Source: Methylococcales bacterium
GTDB lineage: Bacteria > Pseudomonadota > Gammaproteobacteria > Methylococcales > Methylomonadaceae
Reading direction: 5' to 3'
Assembly (NCBI GenBank): GCA_037133675.1
Contig: JBAXNR010000011.1
Span: 1,197-65,196, forward strand
Length of the DNA: 64,000 nucleotides
A program made the translations under genes and the position numbers. Below the pieces are notes generated by a model. It was not told where the DNA came from, searched no databases, and worked only from the letters and a program-made list of their open reading frames with translations. Below are positions 34,016 through 62,192 of this stretch, in pieces. The stretch's first letter is position 1; each line of letters starts with the position of its first letter.

Positions 34016-34130
34016 TATGACCTTTATATCTTGATGTAGTCGCCACGCCGTGCGGCACAGTTCCACTAGGGGATTGTTTTAGTTTAATGATTTCATTTTA
34101 ATTTACTAATCTTTTTTACAAATGCCGTTA

Positions 34131-35933
34131 TTAGTTACGACCATATTGATACTTAAATTTACGTCTTAACAAGCCAGCAGGATCATCGGGAATACGGTTT
34201 AGCCATTGCTCATTGGCTTGTTGTTTTTCATTTTTCGCTGACGAGTCGGTGGGTTTGGCTTGTTGTGCGGCTTGTTTTTTGGTGTCGTCTTTTTTCTGTT
34301 CCGCAGGCTGCTCGGTTTTTGATTGCTCTTTCGGCTTAGAGTCTTCTTGTTGCTTTAGTTGTTCTTGCCCCTTTTCTTGCTTTTGGTTTTTTTGTTGTTC
34401 ATTCGATTGCTGTTCTTGCTGCTCAGATTGTTGGTCTTTTTGTGAGTTTTGCTGTTGCTGCGATTGTGAGTCTTTATTTTCAGATGATTGTTGTTTGTCC
34501 GATTGTTGTTGTTCTTTATTTTGATCGGATTCTTGCTGTTTGTCTTGCTCTTGTTTGGGCGGTTGTTTTTCCAGCTCTTTTTCGACTAGCTCTTTGTTAT
34601 ATTTAGCATCGTCATGGTTTGGATTCAGCTTCAAGGCTTGTTGATAAGCGGCGATAGCTTCTTCTAATTTCCCAGCTTGCGCGAGTGCGTTACCTTGATT
34701 GTAAATATTATCAGCGTTTTGCTCTGTTTGCGTTTGGTAGGTTTTTAAGGCTTTTTCATAGTCGCCCGCCTTATAATGCGCGGCGGCTTGCCAGTTTGGA
34801 TTTTCAAATTTCTCTGCGGCTTTGGCATAATCGCCTTGTTGATAGGCTTTCAATGCTTGTTGATCTGGGCGTTGCCATAAATCTTGCCATTCAAACGCAT
34901 AGCTGTTTTTGGGTAGCGGTAATAACACCAACAAAGCTACGCATAACAAACCTTTTCTAAAAAATAACGCACCCAACGGTAACACCAATAACAATAACCA
35001 CGCGCCCTGGTCGTTCCACTGTTCCAACATCATGTCGTTATCGGCTTTGCCTTGTTGTATGGGCTTATCAAAAGCGTTTAATAGTGCCTTTACGTCTTCA
35101 TCATCAGAAGTCAGAGTTTGATAAAGCCCTTGTCCTGCTTGGGCTAAGCTGCTTAAGTTAGTCACATTTAATTTGGTCACCACAATAGAGCCTTGATCGT
35201 CTTTTAAAAATCCACCTTCGGGTAGTGCGATAGGTGCGCCGTCTTCTGTACCTACCCCTAAAACGGATAATTGAAAGTTAGCCAGTTTTTTTACCGTGGG
35301 CAAGGTGGCATTCATTTCAACGGTATCGGTAATTAATAAAATCTGCCCAGTTTGTAAGCCCGCTTGTTTAAACAAGGCAACGGCTTTTTCTAATGCAACG
35401 GCAGTATTATTACCCTGACTGGGCATAATATCGGTGGTCAACGCCGCTAATTGGCTATCGATGGTATTGGTATCATCGGTGAGCGGAGTCACAGTAAAGG
35501 CATCACCTGAGTAAACGATTAGAGCAGTTTGTCCGTCTTTACGTTGTTTTAAAATATCGGCAATTTTGTAGCGGGCAATGGTTAAACGACTGGGTTTAAT
35601 ATCAGCGGCATCCATTGAAGTGGATAAATTTAACGCAATCACTAAGGCGGCATCATTTCTAAACGCAGGAGAGGGTAAACGCTGCCAAGTGGGTCCTGCT
35701 AAAGCAATAATCATCAATAAGGTACTGATAACACCTAGCGTCAACCATAGCCGACTTTGATTAACGGTTTTATCTTGCAATAAAAAAGGCAGTAGTTCGG
35801 CATCACAACACGCAGTCCAATTTCCACGACTGAGTTTATTGCGTAACATTAATACCGAGATAACGACGGCGGGTAATATCGCCAGCAACCAGTACGGTCT
35901 AATAAAATGAAAGTCCGCTAGATTCATGACCAC
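34131..35933 (-). CDS. VWA + TPR membrane protein (BatB/BatC-like fusion) with a Q/E/K-rich tail
   Basis: It has N-terminal TMs and a VWA domain with an altered MIDAS (ALNLSTSM). TPR repeats follow (AAHYKAGDYEKALKTY..., GNALAQAGKLEEAIAAYQQALKLNP), then about 125 aa of Q/E/K/S low complexity and a conserved end WLNRIPDDPAGLLRRKF. Confidence 0.8.
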   Translation of the reverse strand: MVMNLADFHFIRPYWLLAILPAVVISVLMLRNKLSRGNWTACCDAELLPFLLQDKTVNQSRLWLTLGVISTLLMIIALAGPTWQRLPSPAFRNDAALVIALNLSTSMDAADIKPSRLTIARYKIADILKQRKDGQTALIVYSGDAFTVTPLTDDTNTIDSQLAALTTDIMPSQGNNTAVALEKAVALFKQAGLQTGQILLITDTVEMNATLPTVKKLANFQLSVLGVGTEDGAPIALPEGGFLKDDQGSIVVTKLNVTNLSSLAQAGQGLYQTLTSDDEDVKALLNAFDKPIQQGKADNDMMLEQWNDQGAWLLLLVLPLGALFFRKGLLCVALLVLLPLPKNSYAFEWQDLWQRPDQQALKAYQQGDYAKAAEKFENPNWQAAAHYKAGDYEKALKTYQTQTEQNADNIYNQGNALAQAGKLEEAIAAYQQALKLNPNHDDAKYNKELVEKELEKQPPKQEQDKQQESDQNKEQQQSDKQQSSENKDSQSQQQQNSQKDQQSEQQEQQSNEQQKNQKQEKGQEQLKQQEDSKPKEQSKTEQPAEQKKDDTKKQAAQQAKPTDSSAKNEKQQANEQWLNRIPDDPAGLLRRKFKYQYGRN

Positions 35934-36904
35934 CTCAGTTTTGAACCACTCAAAAATGCCACTAACCCTAATGCAAACGCTAGAGGGTACATATACAATT
36001 CGGTGCGTGGTCGAAAATATTGTTTATCTTTTTCTACAGGCTCCAACTCATCTAAGCGCATATAAATGTTATTGAGTTCATTGGTATTTTTGGCGCGATA
36101 ATAATAACCGCCTGTACTTTCGGCAATTTTAATAAGGGTTTTTTCATCTAAATCCAGCGACGGATTGACTTTACGATTACCAAATAAACTGGGTACTAAC
36201 ATTTCATCCGCACCAATACCGATGGTATAAATCTTTAGTTTATTCGCTGCGGCTAATTCAGCGGCTTTTAAGGGCGTGACTTCACCCGCAGTATTCGCAC
36301 CATCGGTCAATAAAATTAACACATGGCTATTATCGGGTTGATTTTTAAGCCGCTTAACAGCCAAACCGATAGCATCACCTATCGCGGTATTATCACCTGC
36401 CAAACCAATCACCGCTTCATCCAATAAGGTCTGCACAGTTTTACGGTCAAAGGTTAACGGGGTTTGTAAATAAGCTTGTGTGCCAAATAGAATCAAACCG
36501 ATACGATCACTAACACGGCGATTAATAAAATCGCTGGCAATCGCTTTAATGGCGGTAAGTCGATCCACTGGGCGTTTATTGAGCATAAAATCCTGTGCTT
36601 CCATACTGCGTGATAAATCCACCGCCATCATTAAATCGCGTCCGCTAATCGCCTGTTCAATAGGTTCACCTAACCATTGCGGTCTAGCGCAAGCAAGCAC
36701 TAACAATATCCACGCAACAGCCGCTAACCACAATCCCCATGAATTAACTTTTAATGTTACTTGGGTTTGTAACTCCGCAATGTCGTTTAAAAACGGCACT
36801 TTCAACGCCGCCTGTTCGACAGGATTACACACTGGCAACAACCAGCGTACTAATAACGGTAACGGTAAGGCAAGCAATGCCCAGAGCCATGCAAAATGAA
36901 TCAT
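35924..36904 (-). CDS. VWA domain membrane protein (BatA-like)
   Basis: Two N-terminal TMs, an intact MIDAS (MAVDLSRSM), LLTDGANTAG and a C-terminal TM. It overlaps both neighbours. Confidence 0.85.
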   Translation of the reverse strand: MIHFAWLWALLALPLPLLVRWLLPVCNPVEQAALKVPFLNDIAELQTQVTLKVNSWGLWLAAVAWILLVLACARPQWLGEPIEQAISGRDLMMAVDLSRSMEAQDFMLNKRPVDRLTAIKAIASDFINRRVSDRIGLILFGTQAYLQTPLTFDRKTVQTLLDEAVIGLAGDNTAIGDAIGLAVKRLKNQPDNSHVLILLTDGANTAGEVTPLKAAELAAANKLKIYTIGIGADEMLVPSLFGNRKVNPSLDLDEKTLIKIAESTGGYYYRAKNTNELNNIYMRLDELEPVEKDKQYFRPRTELYMYPLAFALGLVAFLSGSKLRWS

Positions 36905-37383
36905 GATTTTTTTTGTGCTTTCAGCCAGTCTTCACACAGACTGATGAGTTGAAAAATTTCTTGTTCAGAGGGCGGCGATTTTCGATAAGGCGCGTCTGCT
37001 AAACATCGCCCTGCCCCTTTGGTAAACGGTGCATCGTTTAATGAACTATCAAGAAAGGCTAACCACGCTTGCCCCGTTAAACTTGCCGTTTGTGCGCGTG
37101 GTGCAACACTAATCGCTACCCGCCGTAGCAATGCCGACAGTTCAGCGGTTTTTTCGCTATTGTTCGCTGTGCTGTTTTTAATGGTATTCAACAGTTTTTT
37201 TGCCGCTTTAAGCGAAGTATTGCGAGTGAAATATTTGTAACACTTGTATAAAAATACGATAAACAAAGGAATCAATAATACCAGCAACCACCAACCAATA
37301 GCAGGAGGAAACCAGCCAATTGCGTCTGGGCTAATTGGTACGGGTAAACGTAATTCTTTAAGCGGGAGTTGAGTTGGCTGCAT
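36901..37383 (-). CDS. DUF4381-like single-TM protein
   Basis: 160 aa. The PPAIGWWLLVLLIPLFIVFLY TM and its position between DUF58 and BatA are typical of Bat/MoxR operons. Confidence 0.65.
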   Translation of the reverse strand: MQPTQLPLKELRLPVPISPDAIGWFPPAIGWWLLVLLIPLFIVFLYKCYKYFTRNTSLKAAKKLLNTIKNSTANNSEKTAELSALLRRVAISVAPRAQTASLTGQAWLAFLDSSLNDAPFTKGAGRCLADAPYRKSPPSEQEIFQLISLCEDWLKAQKKS

Positions 37384-37396
37384 AGTTATTGTTGGG

Positions 37397-38317
37397 TCAT
37401 CGTAAGCACTGAATAGGATCGTCTGCGGTACTGCATTGCATAAAGGTTAAGCCGCGCTTTTTTGCAAATTGCTGTAATCGTTCTAGTCGTTGTTCAAAAT
37501 GTTGGTGATAGGTTAATAAACGTTGCTGATCGCTGGCATCAATCAGCACATCACGCTCACCATCGGTAAATCGATAGCGACCTTGGCTGGGTAAATTATT
37601 TTCCAGTGGGTCATAGATAAAAATTAATACCACTTCACAATGTTGTGACAATTTAGCCAGATGCACTTCTGACGCATCATTTATGCCGCGAAAATCACTA
37701 ATGATAGTGACTAAACTACCAGGATGAGCGTGTTGTGTCAGTCGGGCGAGTACATGATCTAAGGCAATGACGGGGGCATTTTCGGCTGGTCTTTCAGAGT
37801 CATTACCACTGACTAACGCACTTAAAAAACGCAATACTGCGTGTCTACCATTTTGGGGTTTTAATTCACGGCAATTTGAATCAGAAAAAAATTGTCCACC
37901 AATACGATCGCCTTGGTGTTGCGCTGCCCACGCTAATAATCCTGCTAGTTTAGCCGCTAATACCGATTTAAAAACCCCGCGAGTGGCAAAGTGCATTGTG
38001 AGTCGGTTATCGACAGAAATAAACACAGGGCGTTCGCGTTCTTCTCGAAACACTTTGGTTTGAACTTTACCCGTCCGTGCGGTAACGTGCCAATCGATAT
38101 TGCGTATATCATCCCCTGCTTGATACGCACGCACTTCTTGAAATTCCATACCGCGACTTTTAAAGTGCGATAAATAACCGCCGCTGGTTTGCGCACGAAT
38201 AGAGCGGCGTTTTAGATTTAAGCTTGCCGCAGGTTTTGCGAGATTAATCAGAGTTTTTAGCGAGATAAAAACCCGTTCACTGGCATCAATATTTGTTTTT
38301 TTTAACATGGTACTCAA
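37397..38317 (-). CDS. DUF58 family protein (VWA-like, MoxR-associated)
   Basis: GMEFQEVRAYQAGDDIRNIDWHVTARTGKVQTKVFREERE is the classic DUF58 signature. Confidence 0.85.
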   Translation of the reverse strand: MSTMLKKTNIDASERVFISLKTLINLAKPAASLNLKRRSIRAQTSGGYLSHFKSRGMEFQEVRAYQAGDDIRNIDWHVTARTGKVQTKVFREERERPVFISVDNRLTMHFATRGVFKSVLAAKLAGLLAWAAQHQGDRIGGQFFSDSNCRELKPQNGRHAVLRFLSALVSGNDSERPAENAPVIALDHVLARLTQHAHPGSLVTIISDFRGINDASEVHLAKLSQHCEVVLIFIYDPLENNLPSQGRYRFTDGERDVLIDASDQQRLLTYHQHFEQRLERLQQFAKKRGLTFMQCSTADDPIQCLR

Positions 38318-39321
38318 GGGACGGCAATGCGGGCAATCAGTTCTTTGATGACATGATCGGCAGTAATACCCTCGGCTTCGGCTTCATAAGATAGGATTAT
38401 GCGATGCCGTAACACATCAAAAGCGATGTCTTGTATATCTTCAGGCGCGACAAAATCGCGTTGTGCTAGCCACGCTTTGGCTTTAGCACAGCGGTCAATA
38501 GCAATACTGGCGCGTGGACTTGCGCCATATTGCAACCACGAGGCTAAGTCTGCACCGTAAGCCGCTGGGTTGCGGGTTGCTAACACGATTTGTAATAAAT
38601 AATTTTCTAAGCTATCTGCCATGAATACATCGAGTATTTCATTACGCGCTTCAAATAGGGTCGCTTGGCTTAGTGGTACAAAGGGTGATGAGCTTTTTTC
38701 CTGTTTTGAATCTGGGTGAATTTGCCGTGCTTCGGCTCTAACTAAATGCAGGATATTTTTTTCGTGTTCAGCACTGGGATAATCCACTTTAACGTGCAGT
38801 AAAAACCGATCCAATTGCGCTTCGGGTAAGGGATAAGTGCCTTCGTGTTCAATGGGATTTTGAGTTGCCATCACCATGAACAATTGCGGTAATGGGTAAG
38901 TCATTTTTCCGACCGTGACTTGCCGTTCTCCCATTGCTTCTAACAACGCGGCTTGCACTTTAGCTGGTGAACGATTGATTTCATCCGCTAAAATCAAATT
39001 ATGAAACACTGGCCCCGCTTGAAATTCAAATGCGTCTTTTTGAGGACGATAAATTTCCGTGCCTGTTAAATCCGCAGGTAACAAGTCGGGGGTAAACTGC
39101 ACTCGATGAAAATCGGCTTCTATCCCTTTGCTCAGCACTTTAATGGCGCGTGTTTTAGCAAGACCAGGTGCGCCTTCCACCAAAATATGCCCATCGGCTA
39201 ATAAGCCAATTAACATACGCTCGACCAGTACATCTTGTCCGATGATTTGTTGGTTAATAAAGTCTTGCAAGCGTTTTACTGCCGATTGCGTTGAATCTGT
39301 CGTGTTGTTTTGTTCTGACAT
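38314..39321 (-). CDS. moxR: MoxR-family AAA+ ATPase
   Basis: Walker A GAPGLAKT and Walker B LILADEINRSPAKVQAALLEAM; 335 aa. Confidence 0.95.
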   Translation of the reverse strand: MSEQNNTTDSTQSAVKRLQDFINQQIIGQDVLVERMLIGLLADGHILVEGAPGLAKTRAIKVLSKGIEADFHRVQFTPDLLPADLTGTEIYRPQKDAFEFQAGPVFHNLILADEINRSPAKVQAALLEAMGERQVTVGKMTYPLPQLFMVMATQNPIEHEGTYPLPEAQLDRFLLHVKVDYPSAEHEKNILHLVRAEARQIHPDSKQEKSSSPFVPLSQATLFEARNEILDVFMADSLENYLLQIVLATRNPAAYGADLASWLQYGASPRASIAIDRCAKAKAWLAQRDFVAPEDIQDIAFDVLRHRIILSYEAEAEGITADHVIKELIARIAVP

Positions 39322-43779: not shown

Positions 43780-44193
43780 TTAATGGCTTATGAGGGTAGG
43801 TTTAAAAATGTTGTCTAAGTTACTGTCGTTACTATCATAAGTCAAATGGCAAACTATTAGATAATCTAGTCTAACGCAGTTCACCACCCTACAACAAAGT
43901 GTCAATTTGCATAATGAGATAATAAAAAACTTAAAATTTGCCTTGTAACATCATCTTAACCTATTGTTTTTAATAACTATCATCAATACTAAATATTGGC
44001 TAGCAGTAAAAGTTAAAGCGATTGAGGTTCAAAATAGTCAAAAAATAAGCTTTTTAATTTCATAACAACATTACTATTTTTACCGCTATCAATAGTTAAA
44101 AATTCCTTGTCATCAATACTTCTTTTGCCTTGTTTCAGATAATGTGTTAATTATTACGCATTCACATTACAATGATATAAAGGAAAAAGCTCG

Positions 44194-44475
44194 GTGCAGT
44201 ATGTTTTAATCATTCATGAAGTCGTTGATTACGCCGCGTGGAAAAAAATTTTCGACCAAGCCGCTGAAATCCGAAAACAAGCAGGTGAAGTAAGTTATCA
44301 GCTTTTAAATGTTCAACACGATACTAACAACATTGTTCACTTTTCAAAATGGACATCGTTGGATAATGCTAGGCATTTTTTTGAATCACCTGCATTGATA
44401 GAGATCAGAAAAAAAGCAGGTGTTAAGTCTCCAGAATTTATCTATTTAAACGAACTGGAAAATAAAGTTTTATAA
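44194..44475 (+). CDS. Small Dabb-fold (ABM-like) protein, function unknown
   Basis: 93 aa, GTG start. The pattern ...VVDYAAWKKIFD...HFSKWTSLDNARHFFESP... resembles ferredoxin-like ABM/Dabb proteins. This is a weak call. Confidence 0.4.
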   Translation: MQYVLIIHEVVDYAAWKKIFDQAAEIRKQAGEVSYQLLNVQHDTNNIVHFSKWTSLDNARHFFESPALIEIRKKAGVKSPEFIYLNELENKVL

Positions 44476-44535
44476 CTAATCCACTACCTACTGTTTGTCA
44501 TCTCACTTTACCAATTAACATTAGAGGAAAATAAA

Positions 44536-44901
44536 ATGGAAGAAGACAAAGATTTAACCGCTCCATCCGACTCCGATGTAGAGGGCGCGTTTTTTAGCTC
44601 TCTAAAACGTAATAACCGACAAATACGCGATGACAGAGCGACCGCCATTGCCGAAGATACCGAGCTAGTTTACAAACGTAAAATCGAAGACCTAGAACTC
44701 AATATTAAAAAAATGAAACGCGAACAGGACAATATGTTAGACCTGTCTCCGACTAACGCACAAAGCCTCATTCTCGCCAGTGATTTTATTTCTGTCGATT
44801 ATGTAGAAAAAGATATTGAACTAGGTATTAAAATCCGCAATACCGAAATCACCCTAGAAATAGCCAGAAAAAGATACCAATACTTATTTGGAGGATTATA
44901 A
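44536..44901 (+). CDS. Acidic coiled-coil protein, no recognisable family (gene 1 of trio)
   Basis: 121 aa with a good RBS (AGAGGAAAATAAAATG) and heptad-like KRKIEDLELNIKKMKREQDNML. Its stop lies 1 nt before the VWA gene start. Confidence 0.55.
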   Translation: MEEDKDLTAPSDSDVEGAFFSSLKRNNRQIRDDRATAIAEDTELVYKRKIEDLELNIKKMKREQDNMLDLSPTNAQSLILASDFISVDYVEKDIELGIKIRNTEITLEIARKRYQYLFGGL

Positions 44902-44902
44902 A

Positions 44903-45751
44903 ATGGGCATGGGCGATTACTCTCTCGATGATAGAACAACAAGAGCAACAACACTGGGTTATACCACCAAACCTGCCAGCGAAATATTCTCACCAAGTGC
45001 CAGCAATGCGATGAATCCGCATGGCATAATGCTTCGAGAATCCAGAGATTCTGATGAACATCCTAATACCGTGTCGATTATCTTAGCACTGGATGTCACT
45101 GGTTCTATGGGGTCTATCCCACACTTTCTTGTGAAAGAAGGTTTGCCTAAAATTATGGGTAATATTATTCAACGTAATATTAAAGACCCACAATTATTAT
45201 TTCTAGCCATTGGCGATCATGAATGCGATAACAGTCCCTTACAAGTCGGGCAGTTTGAATCCAGCGATGAATTATTGGATAAATGGCTAACCGAAGTCTA
45301 TCTCGAAGGCGGTGGCGGTGGTAATGGTGGCGAAAGTTATTTATTAGCGTGGTATTTTGCAGGTTTCCATACTGTATTAGACAGCGTTGAAAAAAGACAA
45401 CAAAAAGGCTTTCTTTTTACCATTGGTGATGAACCCACGTTACGCGAATTACCTGCGACAGCTCTTAAAAAGATAATGGGTAATGGGCAGTATCAAAATT
45501 ACTCTGCCAGTGTATTACTGGATAAAGCGCGTGAACATTATCATGTTTACCATCTGCATATTAAAGAAACCTCCTCAGGTAGCCAACAAACTGTAATGGA
45601 TGGTTGGAAAGAATTAATGGGTGACAAGCTCATTCTGGTGGAAAAACACGCGGAGATTGCCAAAATAATCCCTGATATAGTGTCTAAAGTAACCGCTTCA
45701 GCAGCGCGACCAGACGATATTATCAAAGAAAAAACTCCGATTATTTTATAA
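44903..45751 (+). CDS. Cytoplasmic VWA domain protein with an intact MIDAS (gene 2 of trio)
   Basis: ATG 44903 is preceded by GGAGGA. It contains ILALDVTGSMG (DxTGS MIDAS), LAIGDHECD, a glycine loop EGGGGGNGGESY and FTIGDEP. There is no signal peptide or TM. Confidence 0.8.
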   Translation: MGMGDYSLDDRTTRATTLGYTTKPASEIFSPSASNAMNPHGIMLRESRDSDEHPNTVSIILALDVTGSMGSIPHFLVKEGLPKIMGNIIQRNIKDPQLLFLAIGDHECDNSPLQVGQFESSDELLDKWLTEVYLEGGGGGNGGESYLLAWYFAGFHTVLDSVEKRQQKGFLFTIGDEPTLRELPATALKKIMGNGQYQNYSASVLLDKAREHYHVYHLHIKETSSGSQQTVMDGWKELMGDKLILVEKHAEIAKIIPDIVSKVTASAARPDDIIKEKTPIIL

Positions 45752-45753
45752 CA

Positions 45754-46857
45754 ATGGCAAACAAGGCAGTAATAGGTTTAGGTTATGGGGATGAAGGTAA
45801 AGGTTTGTTTATCGATTATCTTTGTTCCCAATCAACTAATCCATTAGTTATTCGTTTTTCAGGTGGACAACAAGCAGGACATACCGTTGTCAGCAATGGA
45901 ATTCGTCACGTTTTTTCTAATTTTTGTGCAGGAACATTAAAAGGCGCACCCAGTTATTTTTCCAAGTTCTGTACCATTGACCCCATTGGTATCGTTAATG
46001 AATTATCAGTATTATTGGATAAAGGGTTTAAACCATTATTATTTATCGATGCGCATTGTCCAGTGACCACGCCTTACGATATAGCGTATAACCAAAAAAA
46101 TAATAAACATGGCAGTTGTGGTGTGGGTGTTGGCGATACGATAAACCGCGAAGAACATCATTATTCCTTAACCTTTGCCGATTTATTTTATCCTTGGGTA
46201 TTAGAAACCAAACTAGCGTTAATAAAAGCCTTTTATTCGGGTTATGACGAGGTGAATTTAAGTAATTTTTTAGAATGCTGCGAACTTATTACTCATTCTA
46301 TTTATATTGAAAAAAGCCACGATGTACCAAAAAATAATTACAGTTATTTATTTGAAGGATCGCAAGGTTTACTGCTCGATAAAAATATTGGTTTTTTCCC
46401 CCACGTTACCCGCTCAAATACCGACACGAAAAATATATTAACTTTATTAGGGCATGAAACTCTGTCGATTTATTTAATAACTCGCGCCTATCAAACCAGA
46501 CATGGTGATGGTCCTTTATCCAATGAATCCATACCGCATAATATTAGTAAAAATCCTAATGAAACTAATATCACTAATAAATATCAAGGCGCGTTAAGAA
46601 TCGCGCTGCTCGATGTATCATTATTGGAATATGCGATAAATAAAGATGATTATCTACGCTGTACAAAAAATAAATCCCTAGTCATCACTTGCCTAGATCA
46701 TATTCACAATGAATACCGCTTTACCTATCAAAATGCCATTATCTACTGTAAAAATGAAACGGAATTTGTTAGTAAAATCGCCAGCATTTTAAATATTAGT
46801 AATATTTATATTAGTGCGTCAGAAGATTCAAAAAACATTCACTCATTTTCTGGGTGA
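45754..46857 (+). CDS. Adenylosuccinate synthetase-like enzyme, shortened and divergent (gene 3 of trio)
   Basis: 367 aa with GLGYGDEGKG (P-loop), GGQQAGHT, FEGSQGLLLD, FPHVTRSNT, AYQTRHGDGP and ITCLDHI. These align with the PurA motifs GDEGKGK, GGHNAGHT, FEGAQG, YPYVTSSNT, STRVGxGPFP and TKLD. The GATTGRRRR loop is not conserved. Confidence 0.8.
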   Translation: MANKAVIGLGYGDEGKGLFIDYLCSQSTNPLVIRFSGGQQAGHTVVSNGIRHVFSNFCAGTLKGAPSYFSKFCTIDPIGIVNELSVLLDKGFKPLLFIDAHCPVTTPYDIAYNQKNNKHGSCGVGVGDTINREEHHYSLTFADLFYPWVLETKLALIKAFYSGYDEVNLSNFLECCELITHSIYIEKSHDVPKNNYSYLFEGSQGLLLDKNIGFFPHVTRSNTDTKNILTLLGHETLSIYLITRAYQTRHGDGPLSNESIPHNISKNPNETNITNKYQGALRIALLDVSLLEYAINKDDYLRCTKNKSLVITCLDHIHNEYRFTYQNAIIYCKNETEFVSKIASILNISNIYISASEDSKNIHSFSG

Positions 46858-48861: not shown

Positions 48862-49792
48862 AAATAATCACGCATTAATGACAGGTTTATTTTTGTTGGT
48901 GCTAGCCATTATCACCGCTGTCATTATTTTTTGGATGGGGCATTTCGATAGAAAGCGGGATATTTACACTATTGCTACACGTGCGTCAGTGTCAGGGCTT
49001 AATCCGCAATCAACAGTATTCTTTCGTGGCATTGAGGTTGGTAAAGTCATCAGTGTGCAGTTTGATCCCAATGACTCAGGTATTATTTTGGTGCCGATTG
49101 AAGTTGATACCAAAATTGTACTCACCAAAGGCGTTTATGCAACCCTGCGCTTAAAAGGCGTGACGGGGTTAACTCAAATTGAATTAGCCGATGAAGGTAA
49201 AATTACCGAACGCTTACCCGCTAATAACAGTGATACCGCTAATCGTATTCCTTTACGCCCTTCAATCACCGACAAATTATTAGACTCAGGTGAACGCTTG
49301 TTGGCAAAAGCCGATATTATAATGACGCGCTTGGATGGCTTATTAACTGATGAAAACACCGAAAATATCGGCGATATTTTGGGAAATCTAAAAACGCTCA
49401 GCCAAAAATTGAACGATTTGAATAAAAGTATCAATACCGCACTGGCAGGTGTTCCCGCCTTAACCCACGATGCCCAAGATACCTTAAAACACATCAATCA
49501 TTTAACCAATGAATTACAAACCTTAAGCAAAGAACTGCGCGTATTGAGCTTTAAAACAGGCAACTTTACCGATAAAGCAGGGCAGTTTGCGGATACGGGC
49601 AAAAACATAGGCGATATGATGATGCAATCCACCTTACCCAAAATGAACACACTGCTAACAGAATTACAATCGACTTCACAACAGGTGAAAAGTACGGCTA
49701 CCTTACTAGAAAATAACCCCCAGTCACTGTTACTAGGGCCTAAGTCCTCAGAACCAGGACCAGGTGAAGCGGGTTATGAGGAGAGCAAATGA
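48854..49792 (+). CDS. MCE/MlaD-family substrate-binding protein with a long helical C-terminus
   Basis: ATG 48854 overlaps the ATPase stop (ATGGGTAG). It has an N-terminal TM and an MCE core (FFRGIEVGKVISVQFDP...). The coiled tail is as in PqiB/Mce-like proteins. Confidence 0.85.
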   Translation: MGRNNHALMTGLFLLVLAIITAVIIFWMGHFDRKRDIYTIATRASVSGLNPQSTVFFRGIEVGKVISVQFDPNDSGIILVPIEVDTKIVLTKGVYATLRLKGVTGLTQIELADEGKITERLPANNSDTANRIPLRPSITDKLLDSGERLLAKADIIMTRLDGLLTDENTENIGDILGNLKTLSQKLNDLNKSINTALAGVPALTHDAQDTLKHINHLTNELQTLSKELRVLSFKTGNFTDKAGQFADTGKNIGDMMMQSTLPKMNTLLTELQSTSQQVKSTATLLENNPQSLLLGPKSSEPGPGEAGYEESK

Positions 49793-50331
49793 AACACTTA
49801 GTTATTGGGTTAATAATCCTGCTTAGCGCGGCGTGTAGTTTCACTAACAAGCAACCTGCACGGCATGATTTTGGTTTATATACTTTGCCAACAGGGACAC
49901 AATCACTGGAAAAATCAGAGGTTAGCATTGATTCACCCGCATGGCTTGCCAATGAATGTATTCAGTTTCGCTTACTTTATTCTGAACCCACACGGTTACG
50001 CTGTTACAGTTTAGATCAATGGATCGCGCCACCGTCCGAATTGTTTAAACAACAATTACAAACTAGCATGAACCCCACAAAACAGCGATTACAGATTCAA
50101 CTACTCAATTTTGAACAGCAATTCGATAGCCCGAAGCAAGCGCGAGTCGTGCTAGCTATGGTAGTTAATGCTTACCAGCCACAGAGCGATCGTCTTATTG
50201 CAACGCAAATTTTTAAATTAGAACAGGCTAGCGCAAGCCCAGACGCGGCAGGAGCTGTGCTAGGATTTACACAATTAACGCGCCTAGCAACCGATAAAAT
50301 TCAGCATTGGTTGATAAATTTAGCTAACTAA
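49789..50331 (+). CDS. ABC-transport auxiliary lipoprotein (PqiC/DUF330-like)
   Basis: 180 aa with the lipobox LLSAAC. It overlaps the MCE gene stop, which is the usual fourth gene of such operons. Confidence 0.7.
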   Translation: MKHLVIGLIILLSAACSFTNKQPARHDFGLYTLPTGTQSLEKSEVSIDSPAWLANECIQFRLLYSEPTRLRCYSLDQWIAPPSELFKQQLQTSMNPTKQRLQIQLLNFEQQFDSPKQARVVLAMVVNAYQPQSDRLIATQIFKLEQASASPDAAGAVLGFTQLTRLATDKIQHWLINLAN

Positions 50332-50353
50332 ATTATTAACTATCGACAACAAC

Positions 50354-50384
50354 TTGATTTTTGAAATACTACATTGGGTATAAT
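50354..50384 (+). promoter_or_regulatory. Possible sigma70 promoter for kup (TTGATT-19 nt-TATAAT)
   Basis: A hexamer at 50354..50359 and a perfect -10 at 50379..50384 are present. The 19-nt spacer is longer than optimal. Confidence 0.3.
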
Positions 50385-50423
50385 TCCCAGTTAACACCTA
50401 CAAACCCTTATTAATGCACAGAT

Positions 50424-52310
50424 ATGTCCACATCCAGCACATCTCATTCTAAAAATCATCTAATACAAATGTCCCTAGGCGCGATAGGCGTAGTCTTTGG
50501 TGATATTGGTACTAGCCCGTTATATGCAGTTAAAGAAGTTTTTGGCGATCATTTACAGATTGATAGAATCCATGTATTAGGGGTGTTATCGCTGATTCTT
50601 TGGTCATTATCCTTAGTGGTTGCCATTAAATACGCCACCTTTATTATGCGAGCGAATAATAAAGGCGAAGGCGGAATCATGGCACTGATGTCCTTAGCGT
50701 TGAACAGCTCCAAAGATTCGCTCAAACTTAAAGGCTTTATTTTGACCATTGGTTTATTTGGTGCTGCCTTATTTTATGGCGACGGCATTATCACGCCTGC
50801 TATTTCGGTATTAAGTGCGGTTGAAGGTTTGCAAATTGTAGCCCCTAAATCCAGTCATTATGTGCTACCCATTACTATTGCGGTACTGGGTGGCTTATTT
50901 GTTTTGCAAGCCAAGGGAACAGGAAAAGTCGGCATTTTATTTATGCCGATTATGTGTATTTGGTTTACGGTTCTTGCTGTTTTGGGAGTTATCAATATCC
51001 TTAAAGTACCCGATGTACTCATGGCAGTTAACCCCTATTATGCGGTACATTTATTAATTGAACTCGGATGGAAAGGTTTGTTAATTATGGGTTCGGTGGT
51101 GTTGGCAATCACAGGCGCGGAAGCATTATATGCAGATATGGGACATTTTGGTTTAAAGCCGATTCGTTATGCGTGGTTTGGTTTTGTGTTTCCCGCCCTG
51201 TTACTGAATTATTTTGGACAAGGCGCGTTATTACTAGAGCATCCTGAAGCAGTAAAAAATCCATTTTATTTATTAGCTCCCCATTGGGCAATGTATCCGC
51301 TATTAGTATTGGCAACATTTGCCTCAGTAATTGCCTCGCAAGCCGTTATTTCAGGTGCGTTTTCGGTGACTAGGCAAGCGATACAATTAGGCTATTGTCC
51401 GCGCATGAAAATCTTGCACACCTCAGGGCGAGAAATTGGACAAGTGTATTTGCCGACCGTTAACTGGTTATTGATGGTCTGCGTATTTGTTGTGGTATTG
51501 AGCTTTCAATCCTCATCCGCACTGGCTTCCGCTTACGGTATCGCGGTGACAGGGACGATGATTATCGATACCGTATTAGCGTTTATAGTCATCCAGAGAC
51601 TATGGCAATGGAAAAAATCAACCAGTATTTTATTTTTAGCCACCTTTTTAACGGTCGATTTTTTATTTCTGTTTGCCAACAGTTTAAAAATTCCCACAGG
51701 CGGCTGGTTGCCGTTAGTAATAGGCGGGGTGTTATTTTTAATTATGACGACATGGATTAAAGGTCGTGCTTTACTTGCCAAGTATGCAGATGAAAATCGG
51801 GTATTGTTTGAGGATTTAGAAGAAAAAGTTCTGCATCATCCAGCGGTTATCACCCAAGGTACGGCGGTTTATTTAGCCAAAACCCTGCATGGTGTGCCGC
51901 AAGTGTTTTTGCATAATTTTGAACATAACCATGTGCTGCATGAACAAATCATCGTGTTGACCATCGTCACCAAAGATGAACCTTATATCGATTATGAACA
52001 CCGTATCAAAATTCGTAATTTCGGTAAAAATCATAATTTTCACCGTATAAAATTTTATTACGGGTTTCAACAAGACCCTGATGTAAGACAAGATTTGGCT
52101 CTTTGTGCGAAAGCAGGTATCGATTTGGATTTTAATAACACCTCATTTTTTATTGGTAGTGAACAACTTACTTTCAAAAAAAGAACCCCGTTACCCGAAT
52201 GGCGCAAATCCTTGTTTTTATTTTTATTTAACAATGCCGCCAGTGCGATAGACTTTTTTAGAATCCCTGTTGAGCGGGTGATCGAACTTGGTATTCGTAT
52301 TGATCTTTAA
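50424..52310 (+). CDS. kup: Potassium uptake protein Kup
   Basis: Contains GVVFGDIGTSPLY; 12-TM core plus a cytoplasmic C-terminal domain; 628 aa. Confidence 0.95.
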   Translation: MSTSSTSHSKNHLIQMSLGAIGVVFGDIGTSPLYAVKEVFGDHLQIDRIHVLGVLSLILWSLSLVVAIKYATFIMRANNKGEGGIMALMSLALNSSKDSLKLKGFILTIGLFGAALFYGDGIITPAISVLSAVEGLQIVAPKSSHYVLPITIAVLGGLFVLQAKGTGKVGILFMPIMCIWFTVLAVLGVINILKVPDVLMAVNPYYAVHLLIELGWKGLLIMGSVVLAITGAEALYADMGHFGLKPIRYAWFGFVFPALLLNYFGQGALLLEHPEAVKNPFYLLAPHWAMYPLLVLATFASVIASQAVISGAFSVTRQAIQLGYCPRMKILHTSGREIGQVYLPTVNWLLMVCVFVVVLSFQSSSALASAYGIAVTGTMIIDTVLAFIVIQRLWQWKKSTSILFLATFLTVDFLFLFANSLKIPTGGWLPLVIGGVLFLIMTTWIKGRALLAKYADENRVLFEDLEEKVLHHPAVITQGTAVYLAKTLHGVPQVFLHNFEHNHVLHEQIIVLTIVTKDEPYIDYEHRIKIRNFGKNHNFHRIKFYYGFQQDPDVRQDLALCAKAGIDLDFNNTSFFIGSEQLTFKKRTPLPEWRKSLFLFLFNNAASAIDFFRIPVERVIELGIRIDL

Positions 52311-52331
52311 TTTAGACACAGACAACTCTCT

Positions 52332-55300
52332 ATGAATGTAATACATGGTGCGTGGGTTCCAAAAGACTCACAAGACTTTATTCAATCGGGCGATTTTTAC
52401 CTGTGGGTGGAAAGTGATGACGTTAAACAGCGGGGTAAAATCCCACTACATCCACAGCACCTATCTGAAAAACACTGCTTAGAATTCTTAAAAACTGAGT
52501 TAATGCTCAGCCCCATTAGTGCAGGGCAAGGCAGATTGCTGTCACTGCTTTTACCGACTGTTACAGATAAACCACTGCCATCACCTGAATTACAATCTGT
52601 TGAAGTAGACGAGACCATCATTTTACAAGATTGGCAGGTGTACGCTTATCCGTTATCCAAACCACTAAAAGCCATTAACAATATTCATTTTTTGTGTTGC
52701 TATCAGGTTATTAATAGCCATATCGGCAGTGATTTCTTATTCTGGTATTACTTTAGCCAATCGTTAAAACAACAAATACTTAAAGATCAGTATATTCCGC
52801 TACTATTAAGCCGAAAATCGGGCAAAAATAATGAGTTGTATCGACGGTGGCAAGCGGTGTCCAGCAACTATGAGGGTTTGATACAAACAGCGATTACCCA
52901 AATGCCGCTGGCTTGTAGTCAACACTATCAACCTGAATCCTTGCTACGCCATTTTGCCGAAGTCGTCATTAATGAATTGCTTAGCACCGCTGCACTTGAT
53001 ATGCCGCAAGTGTTTACTAATAAAATTCGGCACGCTTTTTTGGATACCATGCTGTTGCAAAAACAAACAGCAAAGCCGCTTCAAACCTGTCAAAATCTGC
53101 CTGATGACTATAAATACTGGCATCAATGGCAACAAAAACTATTGGGTACTGAGGCAAAAAGCAGCTTACAACTAGGCTTGCAATTGCTTGAAGCTGATCC
53201 AGACAATGTTGATCAATGGCGTTTAGTGTTCTTTTTATCCTCACACCAAGACCCCTCGCTTAAATTAGATTTGGCTGATTTTTGGGCGCACAAAAAACAC
53301 TTTTATAAAATGCTACAGTCGCAGTTCGGCGACACGATTGAACAGCAGATATTAGTTAATTTAGCCCAGGCTGCTAGTATTTATGCAAAATTATGGCAAG
53401 GCATGGAAGATAGCGAACCCAGTCACGTTCTGCTTGATTTGAATGAAGCCTTTGAATTTTTGAAAGAAAGCGCGTGGATATTGGAAGATGCTGGTTTTAA
53501 AATTATTATTCCCGCATGGCTAACGCCTAAAGGTCGTCGCCGTGCAAAAATTCGTTTGCGTAGTTCTGGAAAAAGTAAATCGGTGACCGCCAGTGCAGGT
53601 GGCTATTTTTCGATGAGTACACTGACCGATTACCAATACCAGCTTGCCATCGGTGATGAAGCCTTAAGCCCTGAAGAATGGCAACAGCTAGTCGATAGTA
53701 AAGCCCCATTGATTCATTTTCGTGGTCAATGGATGGAGCTAGACCGCGATAAAATGCAGGAAATGCTGATATTGTTGCAGCAACAAAATGACAATCCACC
53801 AGAGCTGTCAGTTGCTGACTTATTGAAAAAGATCGCCGAACAAGCCGATGAATTTGAACTGGACAGCCAAGACAGTCTGGCACTTATGTTGGCAAAATTA
53901 TCCGATGATAGCCAATTAGAGCCGATAGCCAATCCTGAACAACTCAAGGCAGAACTGCGAGAATATCAAAAACGCGGTGTGGCATGGTTGTGTTATTTGG
54001 AAAGCTTGGGCTTAAACGGTTGTTTAGCCGATGACATGGGGTTAGGGAAAACCATGCAGGTTATTAGCCTGTTAATTTTAGAACGCGAACAAAATCAGCC
54101 CGCGCCAACTTTATTGATTGCTCCTACTTCTGTCATCGGCAACTGGCAAAAAGAAATTGAAAAATTTGCCCCGCATTTAACGACGTTGATTCATCACGGC
54201 AGTGATCGTGAACAGAATGTCGAAGCTTTTAAGCAACTATGTACACAACATGATTTATTGATTACTTCTTACACACTGGCGCGTAAAGACAGCAAATTAC
54301 TGGGCGCGTTACACTGGCGGCGAATTGTTCTCGATGAAGCGCAAAACATCAAAAATCCTAAAGCCGCGCAAACCACCGCTATTTTAAAGCTCAGTGCCGA
54401 TTCCCGTTTAGCGTTGACAGGTACGCCCGTAGAAAACCGTTTAATGGATTTATGGTCGATTTTTAACTTTCTGAATCCAAACTATTTAGGCAAACAAGCG
54501 CAATTTCGCAAAATTTACGAGTTACCCATACAGCGTGATAATGATCCAATTCAATCAACAATCTTGAAAAAACTTATCCAGCCGTTTATTTTACGGCGAT
54601 TAAAAACCGATAAAAATATCATCAAAGACCTACCCGACAAAATCGATAACAAGGTTTATTGTAATCTCAGCAAAGAACAAGCTTCCTTGTATGAAGTCGT
54701 AGTTAAAGACGTGGTCGCGCAATTGGAAGATTCTGAGGGTATTCAACGACAAGGCTTAATGCTTTCCACCTTGATGAAACTCAAACAAATCTGCAATCAT
54801 CCGATGCAGTTTTTACAAGATGGTAGTGCTTTTACACCTGAGCGTTCGCACAAACTGGAACGGTTTAGCGAAATGCTTGAAGAAGCCATGCAGGAAGGCG
54901 ATAGCGTCTTAGTCTTTACCCAATTTACCGAAATAGCCGAACAACTGGAACGCTATCTGGCAAAAGAAAAACGCTACAAAACCCATTATTTACATGGCGG
55001 TACACCGCGAGCAAAACGCGAATTGATGATTGCTGATTTTCAAAACCCAGACTCAGGTGCGGCGGCGTTTATTTTATCGCTCAAAGCGGGCGGTGTCGGT
55101 ATCACCTTAACCCAAGCCAATCATGTGTTTCATTTTGACCGTTGGTGGAATCCAGCCGTTGAAAACCAAGCTACAGACCGCGCTTTTCGTATTGGTCAGA
55201 AAAAAAATGTTTTCGTGCATAAATTCATCACCTTAGGCACCTTAGAAGAACGCATCGACCTTATGATTAGTGACAAGCAAAAAATGGCGGATAGCATCGT

Positions 55301-55391
55301 TGGCAATGATGAAAGTTGGCTAACCAAGCTCGATAATCAAGCATTTAAAGAACTAATCGCCCTCAATAAACGCAGCATTATGGAAAACTGA
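52332..55391 (+). CDS. SNF2-family helicase/translocase with a ~540-aa N-terminal SNF2-associated region (YwqA-like)
   Basis: Contains LADDMGLGKT (I), VLDEAQNIKN (II), LTGTPVENRL (III) and QATDRAFRIGQ (VI). Confidence 0.9.
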   Translation: MNVIHGAWVPKDSQDFIQSGDFYLWVESDDVKQRGKIPLHPQHLSEKHCLEFLKTELMLSPISAGQGRLLSLLLPTVTDKPLPSPELQSVEVDETIILQDWQVYAYPLSKPLKAINNIHFLCCYQVINSHIGSDFLFWYYFSQSLKQQILKDQYIPLLLSRKSGKNNELYRRWQAVSSNYEGLIQTAITQMPLACSQHYQPESLLRHFAEVVINELLSTAALDMPQVFTNKIRHAFLDTMLLQKQTAKPLQTCQNLPDDYKYWHQWQQKLLGTEAKSSLQLGLQLLEADPDNVDQWRLVFFLSSHQDPSLKLDLADFWAHKKHFYKMLQSQFGDTIEQQILVNLAQAASIYAKLWQGMEDSEPSHVLLDLNEAFEFLKESAWILEDAGFKIIIPAWLTPKGRRRAKIRLRSSGKSKSVTASAGGYFSMSTLTDYQYQLAIGDEALSPEEWQQLVDSKAPLIHFRGQWMELDRDKMQEMLILLQQQNDNPPELSVADLLKKIAEQADEFELDSQDSLALMLAKLSDDSQLEPIANPEQLKAELREYQKRGVAWLCYLESLGLNGCLADDMGLGKTMQVISLLILEREQNQPAPTLLIAPTSVIGNWQKEIEKFAPHLTTLIHHGSDREQNVEAFKQLCTQHDLLITSYTLARKDSKLLGALHWRRIVLDEAQNIKNPKAAQTTAILKLSADSRLALTGTPVENRLMDLWSIFNFLNPNYLGKQAQFRKIYELPIQRDNDPIQSTILKKLIQPFILRRLKTDKNIIKDLPDKIDNKVYCNLSKEQASLYEVVVKDVVAQLEDSEGIQRQGLMLSTLMKLKQICNHPMQFLQDGSAFTPERSHKLERFSEMLEEAMQEGDSVLVFTQFTEIAEQLERYLAKEKRYKTHYLHGGTPRAKRELMIADFQNPDSGAAAFILSLKAGGVGITLTQANHVFHFDRWWNPAVENQATDRAFRIGQKKNVFVHKFITLGTLEERIDLMISDKQKMADSIVGNDESWLTKLDNQAFKELIALNKRSIMEN

Positions 55392-55392
55392 C

Positions 55393-56235
55393 ATGAGCAA
55401 ATATGCAAAAACGTGGTGGGGACAACGATTTATTGAAGCTCTGGAAGACTTTACCGACAGAGGACGTTTGCAACGCGGTCGTTCTTATTCCTCCGATAAC
55501 CGTATCAAACAATGGCTACTAAAAGACGGTAAAGTGAACGCCCAAATACGCGGTAACGTCAATCCCTATTTTGGTGTTTATAAGGAACCGACCTATAAAG
55601 TCAGTGTGCAAATGAGCCATTTATCCGAAGCACAATGGAAAAAAATTATTCAAAAACTCAGTCAAAAAGCCAGTTTTATCTCTCGACTATTATTGAATGA
55701 AATTCCAGAAAACATTGAAACTGTGTTTGAAAGTGTCGGCACGCACCTACTGCCCAATGATTACAAAGATTTTAAAGTAAGCTGTGATTGCCCTGATTAT
55801 GCCGTTCCCTGTAAACATATCGCGGGCATTTGCTATCGTCTAGCAGAAATCATGGACAATGATCCTTTTCTATTATTTGAAATGCGCGGCTTAGCTCCTG
55901 AAAAACTATTGCAACAATTAGCCAACACACCATTAGGAAAAATATTAAGTGATGCGAAAAGCAACGCCACCGTTGAATTAACGCCAGTGAATAGTTTTTA
56001 CACGCGCCCGCTACTCGTTACCAATCCCCCACAACACATCAACCTAAATAACTTTTGGCATGGACAACAACCCTTACCCAAAAGCATAGAACCCAGCACA
56101 CCTGCAATAGTCCCCGCTATGCTCATTAAAAAAGGCGGCGATTTCCCCGCATTTTGGCAAAAACAAAGCTCATTTATTGAAGTCATGGAAGATTTTTATT
56201 CCAGAATGCGTAAGAATGCGTTAAAAGAACTGTGA
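55393..56235 (+). CDS. SWIM zinc-finger protein (YwqB-like)
   Basis: CDCPDYAVPCKHIAGI matches the CxCxnCxH SWIM motif. The start is 1 nt after the SNF2 stop. Confidence 0.85.
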   Translation: MSKYAKTWWGQRFIEALEDFTDRGRLQRGRSYSSDNRIKQWLLKDGKVNAQIRGNVNPYFGVYKEPTYKVSVQMSHLSEAQWKKIIQKLSQKASFISRLLLNEIPENIETVFESVGTHLLPNDYKDFKVSCDCPDYAVPCKHIAGICYRLAEIMDNDPFLLFEMRGLAPEKLLQQLANTPLGKILSDAKSNATVELTPVNSFYTRPLLVTNPPQHINLNNFWHGQQPLPKSIEPSTPAIVPAMLIKKGGDFPAFWQKQSSFIEVMEDFYSRMRKNALKEL

Positions 56236-56539
56236 TTTGAAGTAGCAAGTAGCCCAAGTAAACACTATGAATTTTTAGCGTCCAATTACCAGATAAAATT
56301 TAACATTGTATTCAAACTGGTTTAGCGATACGTTATCGACGGTTTAAGAACACACCGAATAATTAATGAAGCAGCGAGTATTGGCAAAAACCTGGACAAC
56401 GTAGAAATGGAGAATAATCACATCATAATACTCTGAGCTTTAATTCCTTTGCCTCCTAATTTTAAGGTCAGGAGTAAAACTAAAGTTTGACGGGGGATTC
56501 TTATGCCAACTCGATAATAACTTTAGTAGAGGATGTGTT

Positions 56540-57832: not shown

Positions 57833-57844
57833 AGGACATTGACA

Positions 57845-59173: not shown

Positions 59174-59237
59174 GCGTGATCCCAAGTTCTTGAGACAGTT
59201 CAAAAATTGATTATTGGAGTCCAAACTATTTCGCTAT

Positions 59238-59323
59238 GTAGGGTGGGCAAACAGCTCTATCGTTCGCCCACGCTGAATTGACATAAACTGGTGGGCAAGT
59301 AAAAAGACACTTGCCCACCCTAC
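59238..59323. repeat. Composite REP/MITE-like element with nested inverted repeats
   Basis: Outer arms GTAGGGTGGG (59238..59247) and CCCACCCTAC (59314..59323). Inner hairpins are GTGGGCAAAC...CGTTCGCCCAC and GTGGGCAAGT-8 nt-ACTTGCCCAC. Confidence 0.8.
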
Positions 59324-59332
59324 CTAACTTCC

Positions 59333-59491
59333 TTGGCTGTTGTCTTGTCCGCACTCACTACTTTATTAGCCTTTGGCTTGTTGGCGATTAGTTCAACTGA
59401 AATCGTCCACGCATTTGGTTTTACGGTAGCGGTAGGTATACTAACCGCATTGTTAGGTGCGCCGTTGTTGGGTTTAACACGCAAAAGCTAA
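59333..59491 (+). pseudogene. 3'-terminal fragment of an RND/MMPL-type exporter gene
   Basis: The frame reads LAVVLSALTTLLAFGLLAISSTEIVHAFGFTVAVGILTALLGAPLLGLTRKS*. This resembles the last TM helices of MMPL/RND exporters. The upstream body is replaced by the REP element. Confidence 0.45.
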
Positions 59492-59523
59492 TGCTAAATA
59501 CTGGGCGTGATGGGGGGGGATGA

Positions 59524-62160: not shown

Positions 62161-62192
62161 ACTTGCTGTCTGTATTTAATTGAGGAGTGACT

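Follow-up and report, generated by a model that had tools for sequence, protein, structure and literature searches.

A 64,000-nucleotide stretch of DNA from a Methylococcales bacterium (GCA_037133675.1, contig JBAXNR010000011.1; hereafter the window) carries three adjacent genes, g1, g2 and g3, whose arrangement recurs far beyond chance and which form one co-evolving, selected unit. The invariant core of this module is the pair g2+g3, a protein with a von Willebrand factor type A (VWA) fold and a remodelled member of the adenylosuccinate synthetase (PurA) family; the third component is variable, and phages, plasmids and chromosomes exchange the module. We tentatively favour the reading, possible rather than probable, that the genes encode a complex of phage origin that converts a nucleotide with an amine other than aspartate, in connection with the economy of adenine nucleotides and nicotinamide adenine dinucleotide (NAD) in phage-host conflict. 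The features of the locus are:

44536..44901, + strand: g1, 121 amino acids, an acidic protein modelled as a helical hairpin, taken as a lineage-specific third subunit (open reading frame, AlphaFold, synteny)
44903..45751, + strand: g2, 282 amino acids from the ATG, a predicted VWA fold with a MIDAS-like site (open reading frame, AlphaFold/Foldseek)
45754..46857, + strand: g3, 367 amino acids, a divergent adenylosuccinate-synthetase-family protein (PF00709)
44521..44539, + strand: ribosome-binding context of g1 (AGAGGA, spacer, ATG), copy 1 of direct repeat D7
44888-44906, + strand: ribosome-binding context of g2 (GGAGGA, spacer, ATG), copy 2 of direct repeat D7

The three open reading frames (ORFs) lie on one strand with a 1-nt gap between g1 and g2 (TAA-A-ATG, 44899-44905) and a 2-nt gap between g2 and g3 (TAA-CA-ATG, 45749-45756), coordinates and junctions being exactly those given in a preliminary description of this DNA, which had taken the genes for a single operon. 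The mechanical ORF of g2 opens earlier, at TTG 44888; we place the start at ATG 44903 because the second D7 copy, with its GGAGGA, precedes that codon. Unlike g1 and g2, g3 has no Shine-Dalgarno-like context, which is consistent with translational coupling to the genes before it.

That the trio is one unit, as first proposed, is borne out by comparison across genomes. In a set of 80 species-level reference bacterial loci the order g1-g2-g3 is kept in ~78, from several phyla, the misses being contig ends; g3 adjoins g2 in 78 of the 80 loci, and g1 lies directly upstream of g2 in as many. Carriers in this set include Methylococcales/Crenothrix, cable bacteria (Electrothrix), Desulfamplus, Bacteroidales and ~50 species of Chryseobacterium and Flavobacterium, and the closest match to the g2 of the window (locus L009) is 99% identical. 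Among viruses, g2 is encoded on more than 576 IMG/VR contigs; of the 80 best of these, 79 have g2 and g3 adjacent and 64 have a detectable g1 directly upstream of g2. The pair is likewise adjacent in ~200 Mycobacterium cluster-C phages, in Rhizobium RHph_Y65-like phages and in Vibrio Va1-like phages, it is present on megaplasmids of Allorhizobium/Agrobacterium vitis, Acetobacter, Rhodococcus, Rhizobium, Variovorax, Tsukamurella and Methylorubrum, and huge-phage-like contigs of 318-640 kb carry the full trio. Viral and bacterial copies are up to 85-88% identical. In a mirror-tree comparison of 128 loci, the pairwise distances among the three genes correlate with r = 0.88-0.95, and ratios of non-synonymous to synonymous substitution (dN/dS) against Methylococcales relatives are 0.01-0.12 for the three genes (0.01-0.10 for g1), indicating strong purifying selection. 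Homologues of g3 are almost never solitary, and neither purB nor any other purine gene is linked to the module loci. No further universally linked gene was found in the bacterial or viral loci, the commonest viral neighbour family being present in 11 of 80.

Several of the viral genomes have contents that can be described further. The apparent huge phages with the full trio from JGI sample 3300037067 (L089, L090 and L092, of 640, 422 and 318 kb) encode a g1 that is 73-76% identical to that of the window, together with a gp25 baseplate gene, GIY-YIG endonucleases, an NAD-dependent ligase and mostly hypothetical genes. RHph_Y65 and Va1 have in common a Met-rich protein of ~240-260 amino acids (39% identity) encoded just upstream of their g2 homologues (L006 3690-4481 and L007 4117-4830), of which there is none in the other loci examined. 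The region spanning the QBert genome junction holds small hypothetical genes only.

On its sequence, g3 is a PurA-family protein but neither a PurA equivalog nor a PurZ. It matches PF00709 (Adenylsucc_synt) with 151 bits over residues 5-328, and it stays below the cutoffs of the NCBIfam PurA equivalog NF002223 (120.6 bits, cutoff 402), of TIGR00184 (103.7 bits, cutoff 395.6) and of the NCBIfam PurZ model NF038379 (42 bits, cutoff 300); among phage protein families it matches phrog_1211 (E=4e-54). In an alignment to Escherichia coli PurA (PDB 1ADE), with which it has the fold family in common, g3 keeps the P-loop GDEGKG (Asp13, Lys16), the equivalent of the catalytic His41 within GHT, the equivalent of Gln224 within EGSQG, the TRxG motif as TRHG, and Asp333 of the guanine-specificity motif. 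Over 160 g3 homologues, Asp13 is present in 158 and the catalytic His and Gln in all 160, and the invariant or nearly invariant positions, in g3 numbering, include D13, K16, H43, Q204, R244, T248-R249-H250-G251 and D315. The protein retains the residues with which PurA binds GTP and Mg2+ and phosphorylates the purine 6-oxo group.

Other parts of PurA are replaced or missing. Arg143, which in canonical PurA dimers is supplied to the inosine monophosphate (IMP) site by the partner subunit, is lost, and His, Phe or another residue stands there. The aspartate loop of PurA, GATTGRRRR (with Thr300, Thr301, Arg303 and Arg305), aligns to N-x-T-N-x-[YFW]-Q-G in the g3 family and to N-I-T-N-K-Y-Q-G-A-L-R in the g3 of the window, where the family-invariant Q278 takes its place. 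Lys331 of PurA has become a nearly invariant Cys (C313), and the C-terminal region is ~60 residues shorter. The invariants specific to the g3 family are Q40, H250, Q278 and C313.

Might g3 nonetheless be an ordinary auxiliary adenylosuccinate synthetase that boosts the synthesis of adenosine monophosphate, with g1 and g2 as accessory or regulatory proteins? The PF00709 match and the kept catalytic Asp, His and Gln would suit such a role, as would the frequency of nucleotide-synthesis genes in phages, and database records label g3 homologues adenylosuccinate synthetase. We consider it distinctly unlikely, however, given a score of 120 bits against an equivalog cutoff of 402, the lack of conservation of T300, T301, R303, R305 and the dimer residue R143 alongside a different set of invariant residues, the essentially constant coupling of g3 to g2 and the absence of linked purB or other purine genes. 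Where the preliminary description had seen a divergent PurA homologue outside a purine-biosynthesis context, the profile scores and the neighbourhoods agree with it.

PurZ and PurZ0, of the phage 2-aminoadenine pathway, are like g3 in being phage-borne PurA-family proteins within phrog_1211 and, in kind, in diverting PurA chemistry to what would be a non-canonical purpose. PurZ is defined by a Ser in place of the catalytic Asp13 (PMC12884076), whereas the g3 family has Asp there in all but two of its 160 members; moreover, aspartate is still a substrate of PurZ, whose partners are DatZ, MazZ and DpoZ, whereas g3 pairs with a VWA protein. The neighbours of g3 in the window are g1, g2, an aminotransferase and Mla genes, not DatZ, MazZ or DpoZ. 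The identification of g3 as PurZ was rejected on the retained Asp13 and the sub-cutoff score with the PurZ model; because it keeps Asp at position 13, g3 belongs with the ~330 uncharacterised viral "other PurA homologues" listed in PMC12884076.

A Pfam scan of g2 returned no VWA domain and no other Pfam domain, and neither g2 nor g1 showed remote sequence homology to solved structures. The AlphaFold model of g2 (predicted local distance difference test score (pLDDT) 74, predicted template modelling score 0.79) matches VWA/integrin-I domains exclusively when compared with the PDB by Foldseek, with 20 matches at E<=1e-3 that include the solved NorQ-NorD VWA complex. The protein had been described from its sequence as a VWA protein with a metal-ion-dependent adhesion site (MIDAS), and the DVTGSMG motif and the Gly-rich loop EGGGGGNGGES are both present. 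Across 166 homologues the MIDAS-like residues D64-x-T66-G67-S68, E144-S145-Y146 and G175-D176-E177 are invariant or near-invariant, as are R45, E46, D105, Q117, E119, G138 and G139. The set D64-x-T66-x-S68, S145 and D176 is a variant of the MIDAS pattern DxSxS...T...D; with at least 20 invariant residues around the MIDAS, the conservation of g2 is enzyme-like in degree. Fold and motif together predict that g2 binds metal. The family comprises 1406 clusters at 50% identity (E<=1e-10), nearly all of them stand-alone proteins of 280-330 amino acids, and g2 matches phrog_2971 (E=7e-42).

Ahead of these motifs g2 has a conserved N-terminal extension of ~55 residues that starts Met-Gly and is modelled with low confidence. 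Gly2 is present in all 166 homologues, down to ~35% identity, with an aromatic residue at position 6-7 after Met-Gly, and its codons across the homologues include all four GGN, a sign that selection acts on the protein and not on the DNA. This residue lies at the centre of another explanation, in which g3 would be a protein-directed ligase, joining an activated purine nucleotide to an amine on a protein, with that of g2 Gly2 the most plausible, to give a covalent protein-N6-purine-nucleotide adduct. The invariance of Gly2 with its four codons, a conserved N-terminus whose low model confidence is what would be expected if it folds on a partner, the apparent loss of the free-aspartate site of g3, the translational coupling of the genes, and the use of protein-acting J-domain/kinase-like modules as alternative partners (see below) would all fit. 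Gly2 might instead be conserved for Met excision, for stability or for metal ligation, and we know of no PurA-family enzyme with a protein amine as substrate; on balance we think this explanation very unlikely. In an elaborated form, it would make the module a protein-purinylating ligase, in which IMP or another 6-oxopurine nucleotide, activated by GTP, would be joined through C6 to the alpha-amine of the g2 Gly or to another protein amine presented by g2 and g1, for use in NAD/ADP-ribose and adenine-nucleotide conflicts. The chance that this is so seems to us slight; if true, it would be a post-translational modification not known before, at work in large phages and in the bacteria that have captured the module.

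The PurA fold is that of a P-loop NTPase, and VWA/MIDAS proteins typically partner NTPases. By analogy with MoxR-VWA and chelatase systems, g3 might then be a non-synthetic GTPase switch that, paired with the VWA/MIDAS protein, chaperones assembly or metal insertion, an idea with which the NorQ-NorD complex among the fold matches and the many invariant acidic residues around the g2 MIDAS would agree. It has little probability in our view: g3 keeps, beyond the P-loop, the residues for purine 6-oxo activation (the Asp13 base, the His41 acid and Gln224), and no gene for a client metalloprotein is conserved nearby. MoxR-VWA systems (NorQ-NorD) and TerY-P (VWA, kinase and phosphatase) do resemble the module in setting a gene for a cytoplasmic MIDAS VWA protein beside that for a nucleotide-using enzyme, and the plasmid and mycobacteriophage variant of the module, which adds a kinase-like protein, extends the likeness to TerY-P. 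However, the module lacks an AAA+ ATPase and a PP2C phosphatase, and its partner is a PurA-family protein, for which we found no precedent; nor did g2 give a Pfam VWA/TerY match or a PADLOC TerY match.

The first gene is less constant. The AlphaFold model of g1 (pLDDT 80) is a helical hairpin formed by helices 32-65 and 86-118, and the protein is acidic, as described before, with a pI of 4.77 over its 121 residues. It has 932 homologues, which are 72-94% identical across phyla in the 24 aligned, and a Foldseek search with the model returned generic coiled coils only and nothing informative. The first 25 homologues all end in LFGG plus 1-2 residues. A role as a ubiquitin-like or Pup-like modifier was considered and rejected, since a C-terminal GG is found in only 44 of 134 homologues (others end ...LFGKTF, ...LFGEE or ...LFES), the predicted fold is a helical hairpin, and no E1, PafA or peptidase gene is linked.

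The place of g1 is taken, in megaplasmids, cluster-C phages and some of the viral contigs, by a protein of ~345 amino acids that combines a J-domain-like N-terminus (with a conserved H-P/T-D; the Pfam DnaJ match is sub-threshold) with a protein-kinase-like domain. A relationship between g1 and this partner was rejected at an hhalign probability of 0.1%. It is because the pair persists where g1 is replaced that we regard g2+g3 as the core and the third component as interchangeable, a feature that the preliminary description had not recognised. On one such plasmid, Allorhizobium ampelinum pAtS4e (L174 10464-19050), genes for an AAA ATPase, DUF5682, DUF4132, a VWA protein and a SWIM protein lie directly downstream of the module, and this five-gene cluster looks like a separate MoxR/VWA-type conflict system.

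It is from the neighbourhood only that a role of the module in NAD metabolism is suggested. In Chryseobacterium and Flavobacterium the trio sits inside a co-directional array, found in two different gene orders, that contains Pfam-confirmed genes for an NrtR-family regulator, NADAR, a 2OG-Fe oxygenase, microbial PARG, DUF4291 (proposed as an ADP-ribosyltransferase (ART) family; PMC12522546), ADP-ribosylglycohydrolase, SIR2, Tpt1/KptA and NAMPT, as well as PrsA-like, macro and metallophosphoesterase genes recognised by eye only. On the Allorhizobium plasmid, an NrtR-family gene (NrtR_WHD, E=2e-15) lies divergently to the module, and the Rhodococcus copy has a NUDIX gene downstream. In phage loci (L141, L152, L106, L139, L089/L102, RHph_Y65 and Va1), NAMPT, PrsA-like, NADAR, NMNAT or MazG-NMNAT-like genes lie beside the pair, and in L089 a MazG + NMNAT-like fusion gene is directly upstream of the trio. 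In some viral contigs, Ro60/TROVE-like VWA proteins, RtcB RNA ligase and HAD-type phosphatases were seen by eye to recur near the pair (for example L108/L109, cluster v6; L121 16003-17178, cluster v18); with the Tpt1/KptA of Flavobacteriia, these neighbours hint at an RNA-repair theme.

These surroundings recall the phage NAD+ reconstitution pathways NARP1, NARP2 and NARP3, which are also carried by large lytic phages; NAMPT/Namat-like, PrsA/Adps-like and NMNAT genes adjoin the module in several loci, and the Flavobacteriia module sits in an NAD/ADP-ribose island. None of g1, g2 and g3 is homologous to Adps, Namat, Nampt, Nmnat, PnuC or NadR, however, and since they lack the Adps+Namat or Nampt+Nmnat domains that define NARP1 and NARP2, genes of those kinds being mere neighbours in some loci, the module belongs to neither pathway. 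The papers that describe the NARP pathways do not mention it.

In the explanation that we tentatively favour, g3 would use GTP to phosphorylate, and so activate, a 6-oxopurine nucleotide and would then couple it to an amine other than aspartate. The g2 protein, with g1 or the J-domain/kinase-like partner, would complete the complex, replacing the lost PurA dimer contacts, and g2 with g1 may supply or position the co-substrate. The product, or the conversion itself, would serve the adenine-nucleotide/NAD economy while phage and host are in conflict; the module would be a countermeasure or an auxiliary pathway on the side of the phage, domesticated by some bacteria. The link to NAD is drawn because the module recurs in lytic phages and elsewhere beside NAD-salvage and ADP-ribose genes, twice beside an NrtR-family regulator, and its abundance in lytic and huge phage genomes points to a function on the phage side.

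Several observations weigh against this explanation. The apparent loss of the aspartate loop depends on the alignment of a divergent, uncertain region, and some of the IMG/VR contigs classed as viral may be misassigned bacterial DNA. NAD/ADP-ribose genes lie near the pair in fewer than 10% of phage loci by raw count (NARP1 and NARP2 together are found in 5.4% of phage genomes overall; bioRxiv 10.1101/2024.02.11.579819), and neither the window nor any of the 30 chromosomal loci from outside Flavobacteriia shows the association. The Flavobacteriia association may represent only one or two independent events, and some NrtR-family regulators of Bacteroidetes control pentose use rather than NAD (PMC2330246). 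Finally, a few bacterial copies have defence genes next to them, such as the BrxC-like genes and the toxin-antitoxin pairs of the Desulfamplus locus.

This last observation would instead suit a role in anti-phage defence or conflict, the function that the preliminary description had put forward, in which the VWA protein would sense infection and the PurA-like enzyme would make a modified-nucleotide signal or toxin, or deplete GTP or IMP. The patchy, horizontally transferred distribution of the module and its low G+C content in the window are in keeping with defence, and in a few loci there are matches to a Type III restriction enzyme, to NsnAB, to OLD/AbiL-type ATPases or to PIN among the neighbours. 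On plasmids, NUDIX genes adjoin the module, as they do in nucleotide-signal systems. DarT-like ART genes co-occur elsewhere with adenylosuccinate synthetase domains: for the family Lmac_3114, a gene with such a domain is reported in 60% of neighbourhoods, the hosts being Rhizobium and Mesorhizobium, as well as P. aeruginosa, where AAA and NUDIX genes accompany it (PMC12522546). On the other side, a search of PADLOC-DB v2 gave no significant match for g1, g2 or g3 (best E=0.011), and the non-Flavobacteriia bacterial neighbours are, by raw count, mostly housekeeping genes with a defence-like minority; the module does not appear to sit systematically in defence islands. Its Flavobacteriia location is a stable metabolic/regulatory island rather than a variable defence island, and it is abundant in lytic phages (the cluster-C mycobacteriophages and the Rhizobium and Vibrio phages), in huge phages and in the IMG/VR contigs. 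We therefore judge defence unlikely as the function of the module; of the preliminary interpretation, the part that stands is that of a real, conserved, undescribed and nucleotide-related module.

In the window, G+C content is 39% for g1, 41% for g2 and 34% for g3, against 42% overall. An AT-rich spacer of 414 bp (43780-44193, 29% G+C) lies upstream, matching the ~400 bp of AT-rich non-coding DNA noted previously, whereas an ORF of 93 amino acids between the spacer and g1 (44194-44475, + strand) had been overlooked. This ORF has a borderline match to the Pfam family ABM (antibiotic biosynthesis monooxygenase; 23.0 bits, cutoff 23.1) and is 89-100% conserved in the closest Methylococcales relatives (L004, L009 and L010); since no other cassette locus has it, it was rejected as a fourth member of the module. 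The trio's neighbours are an aminotransferase and Mla genes, and this insertion site is common to the nearest relatives only. From the low G+C content and the restricted insertion site, we infer that the trio is an orphan cassette acquired horizontally by this Methylococcales genome. Scans for promoters, terminators and flanking repeats at the locus gave nothing beyond chance level, and no integration scars were found. No riboswitch or other RNA element was found upstream, and no Rfam element is associated with the module; c-di-GMP-I riboswitches are present in the Desulfamplus (L003 1181-1255) and Electrothrix (L001 14928-15004) loci, several kb off and unlinked to the cassette. Among the eight large downstream ORFs tested (49789-63972) there is no canonical purA, and the 430-aa ORF at 56540 has no NCBIfam match.

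Elsewhere in the window (52332-56235, + strand), a 280-aa ORF comes after the gene for a 1019-aa Snf2-family helicase that scores below the cutoffs of the SCO1167, ZorD and DrmD models. In the near-identical relative L004 the gene after kup encodes instead a 233-aa weak-SWIM protein, and the region downstream of kup seems variable. On the opposite strand from the trio and 5-10 kb upstream of it (~34100-39321, - strand), comparison with L004 revealed a MoxR (AAA_3) + DUF58 operon, two of whose genes were identified, along with several more ORFs; this operon, possibly a Bat-like system that includes a VWA protein, is unrelated to the trio. A CDF cation transporter (62827-63972, + strand) has the magnetosome models MamB/MamM as its top NCBIfam matches (215 bits, cutoff 350), too low a score for a confident equivalog.

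Placed against known systems, the module falls outside the PurA equivalogs, PurZ, PADLOC, TerY-P, NARP and ubiquitin-like modifiers, and belongs only to the PurA superfamily and, through g2, to the VWA fold with a MIDAS. No description of a module of VWA and PurA-like proteins was found in the searchable full-text literature, in agreement with the earlier statement that the pairing was undescribed; the 2012 paper of de Souza and Aravind on NAD-utilizing pathways could mention it. To that earlier picture our analysis adds the g2+g3 core with its interchangeable partner, the NAD/ADP-ribose neighbourhood, the apparent loss of the aspartate loop of g3 and the 93-aa ORF. What emerges is a phage-type PurA-family enzyme in an undescribed multi-protein architecture, an obligate pair of VWA and PurA-like proteins; the catalytic subunit comes from a well-known enzyme family, the system itself is undescribed, and there is a small chance that its chemistry is categorically new.

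In PurZ, a small change in a phage PurA homologue led to a new DNA base. With the aspartate site remodelled in g3, it is plausible that the module yields a new nucleotide product or ligates in a new way. No description of the pair was found, although it is carried by ~200 mycobacteriophages that have been studied intensively, by megaplasmids of Agrobacterium and Rhodococcus, and by dozens of Chryseobacterium and Flavobacterium species that can be grown in culture. Its neighbourhood ties the module to the active field of phage-bacteria warfare over NAD+ and ADP-ribose, and because genetically tractable hosts and phages carry it, the question of what it does is directly testable.

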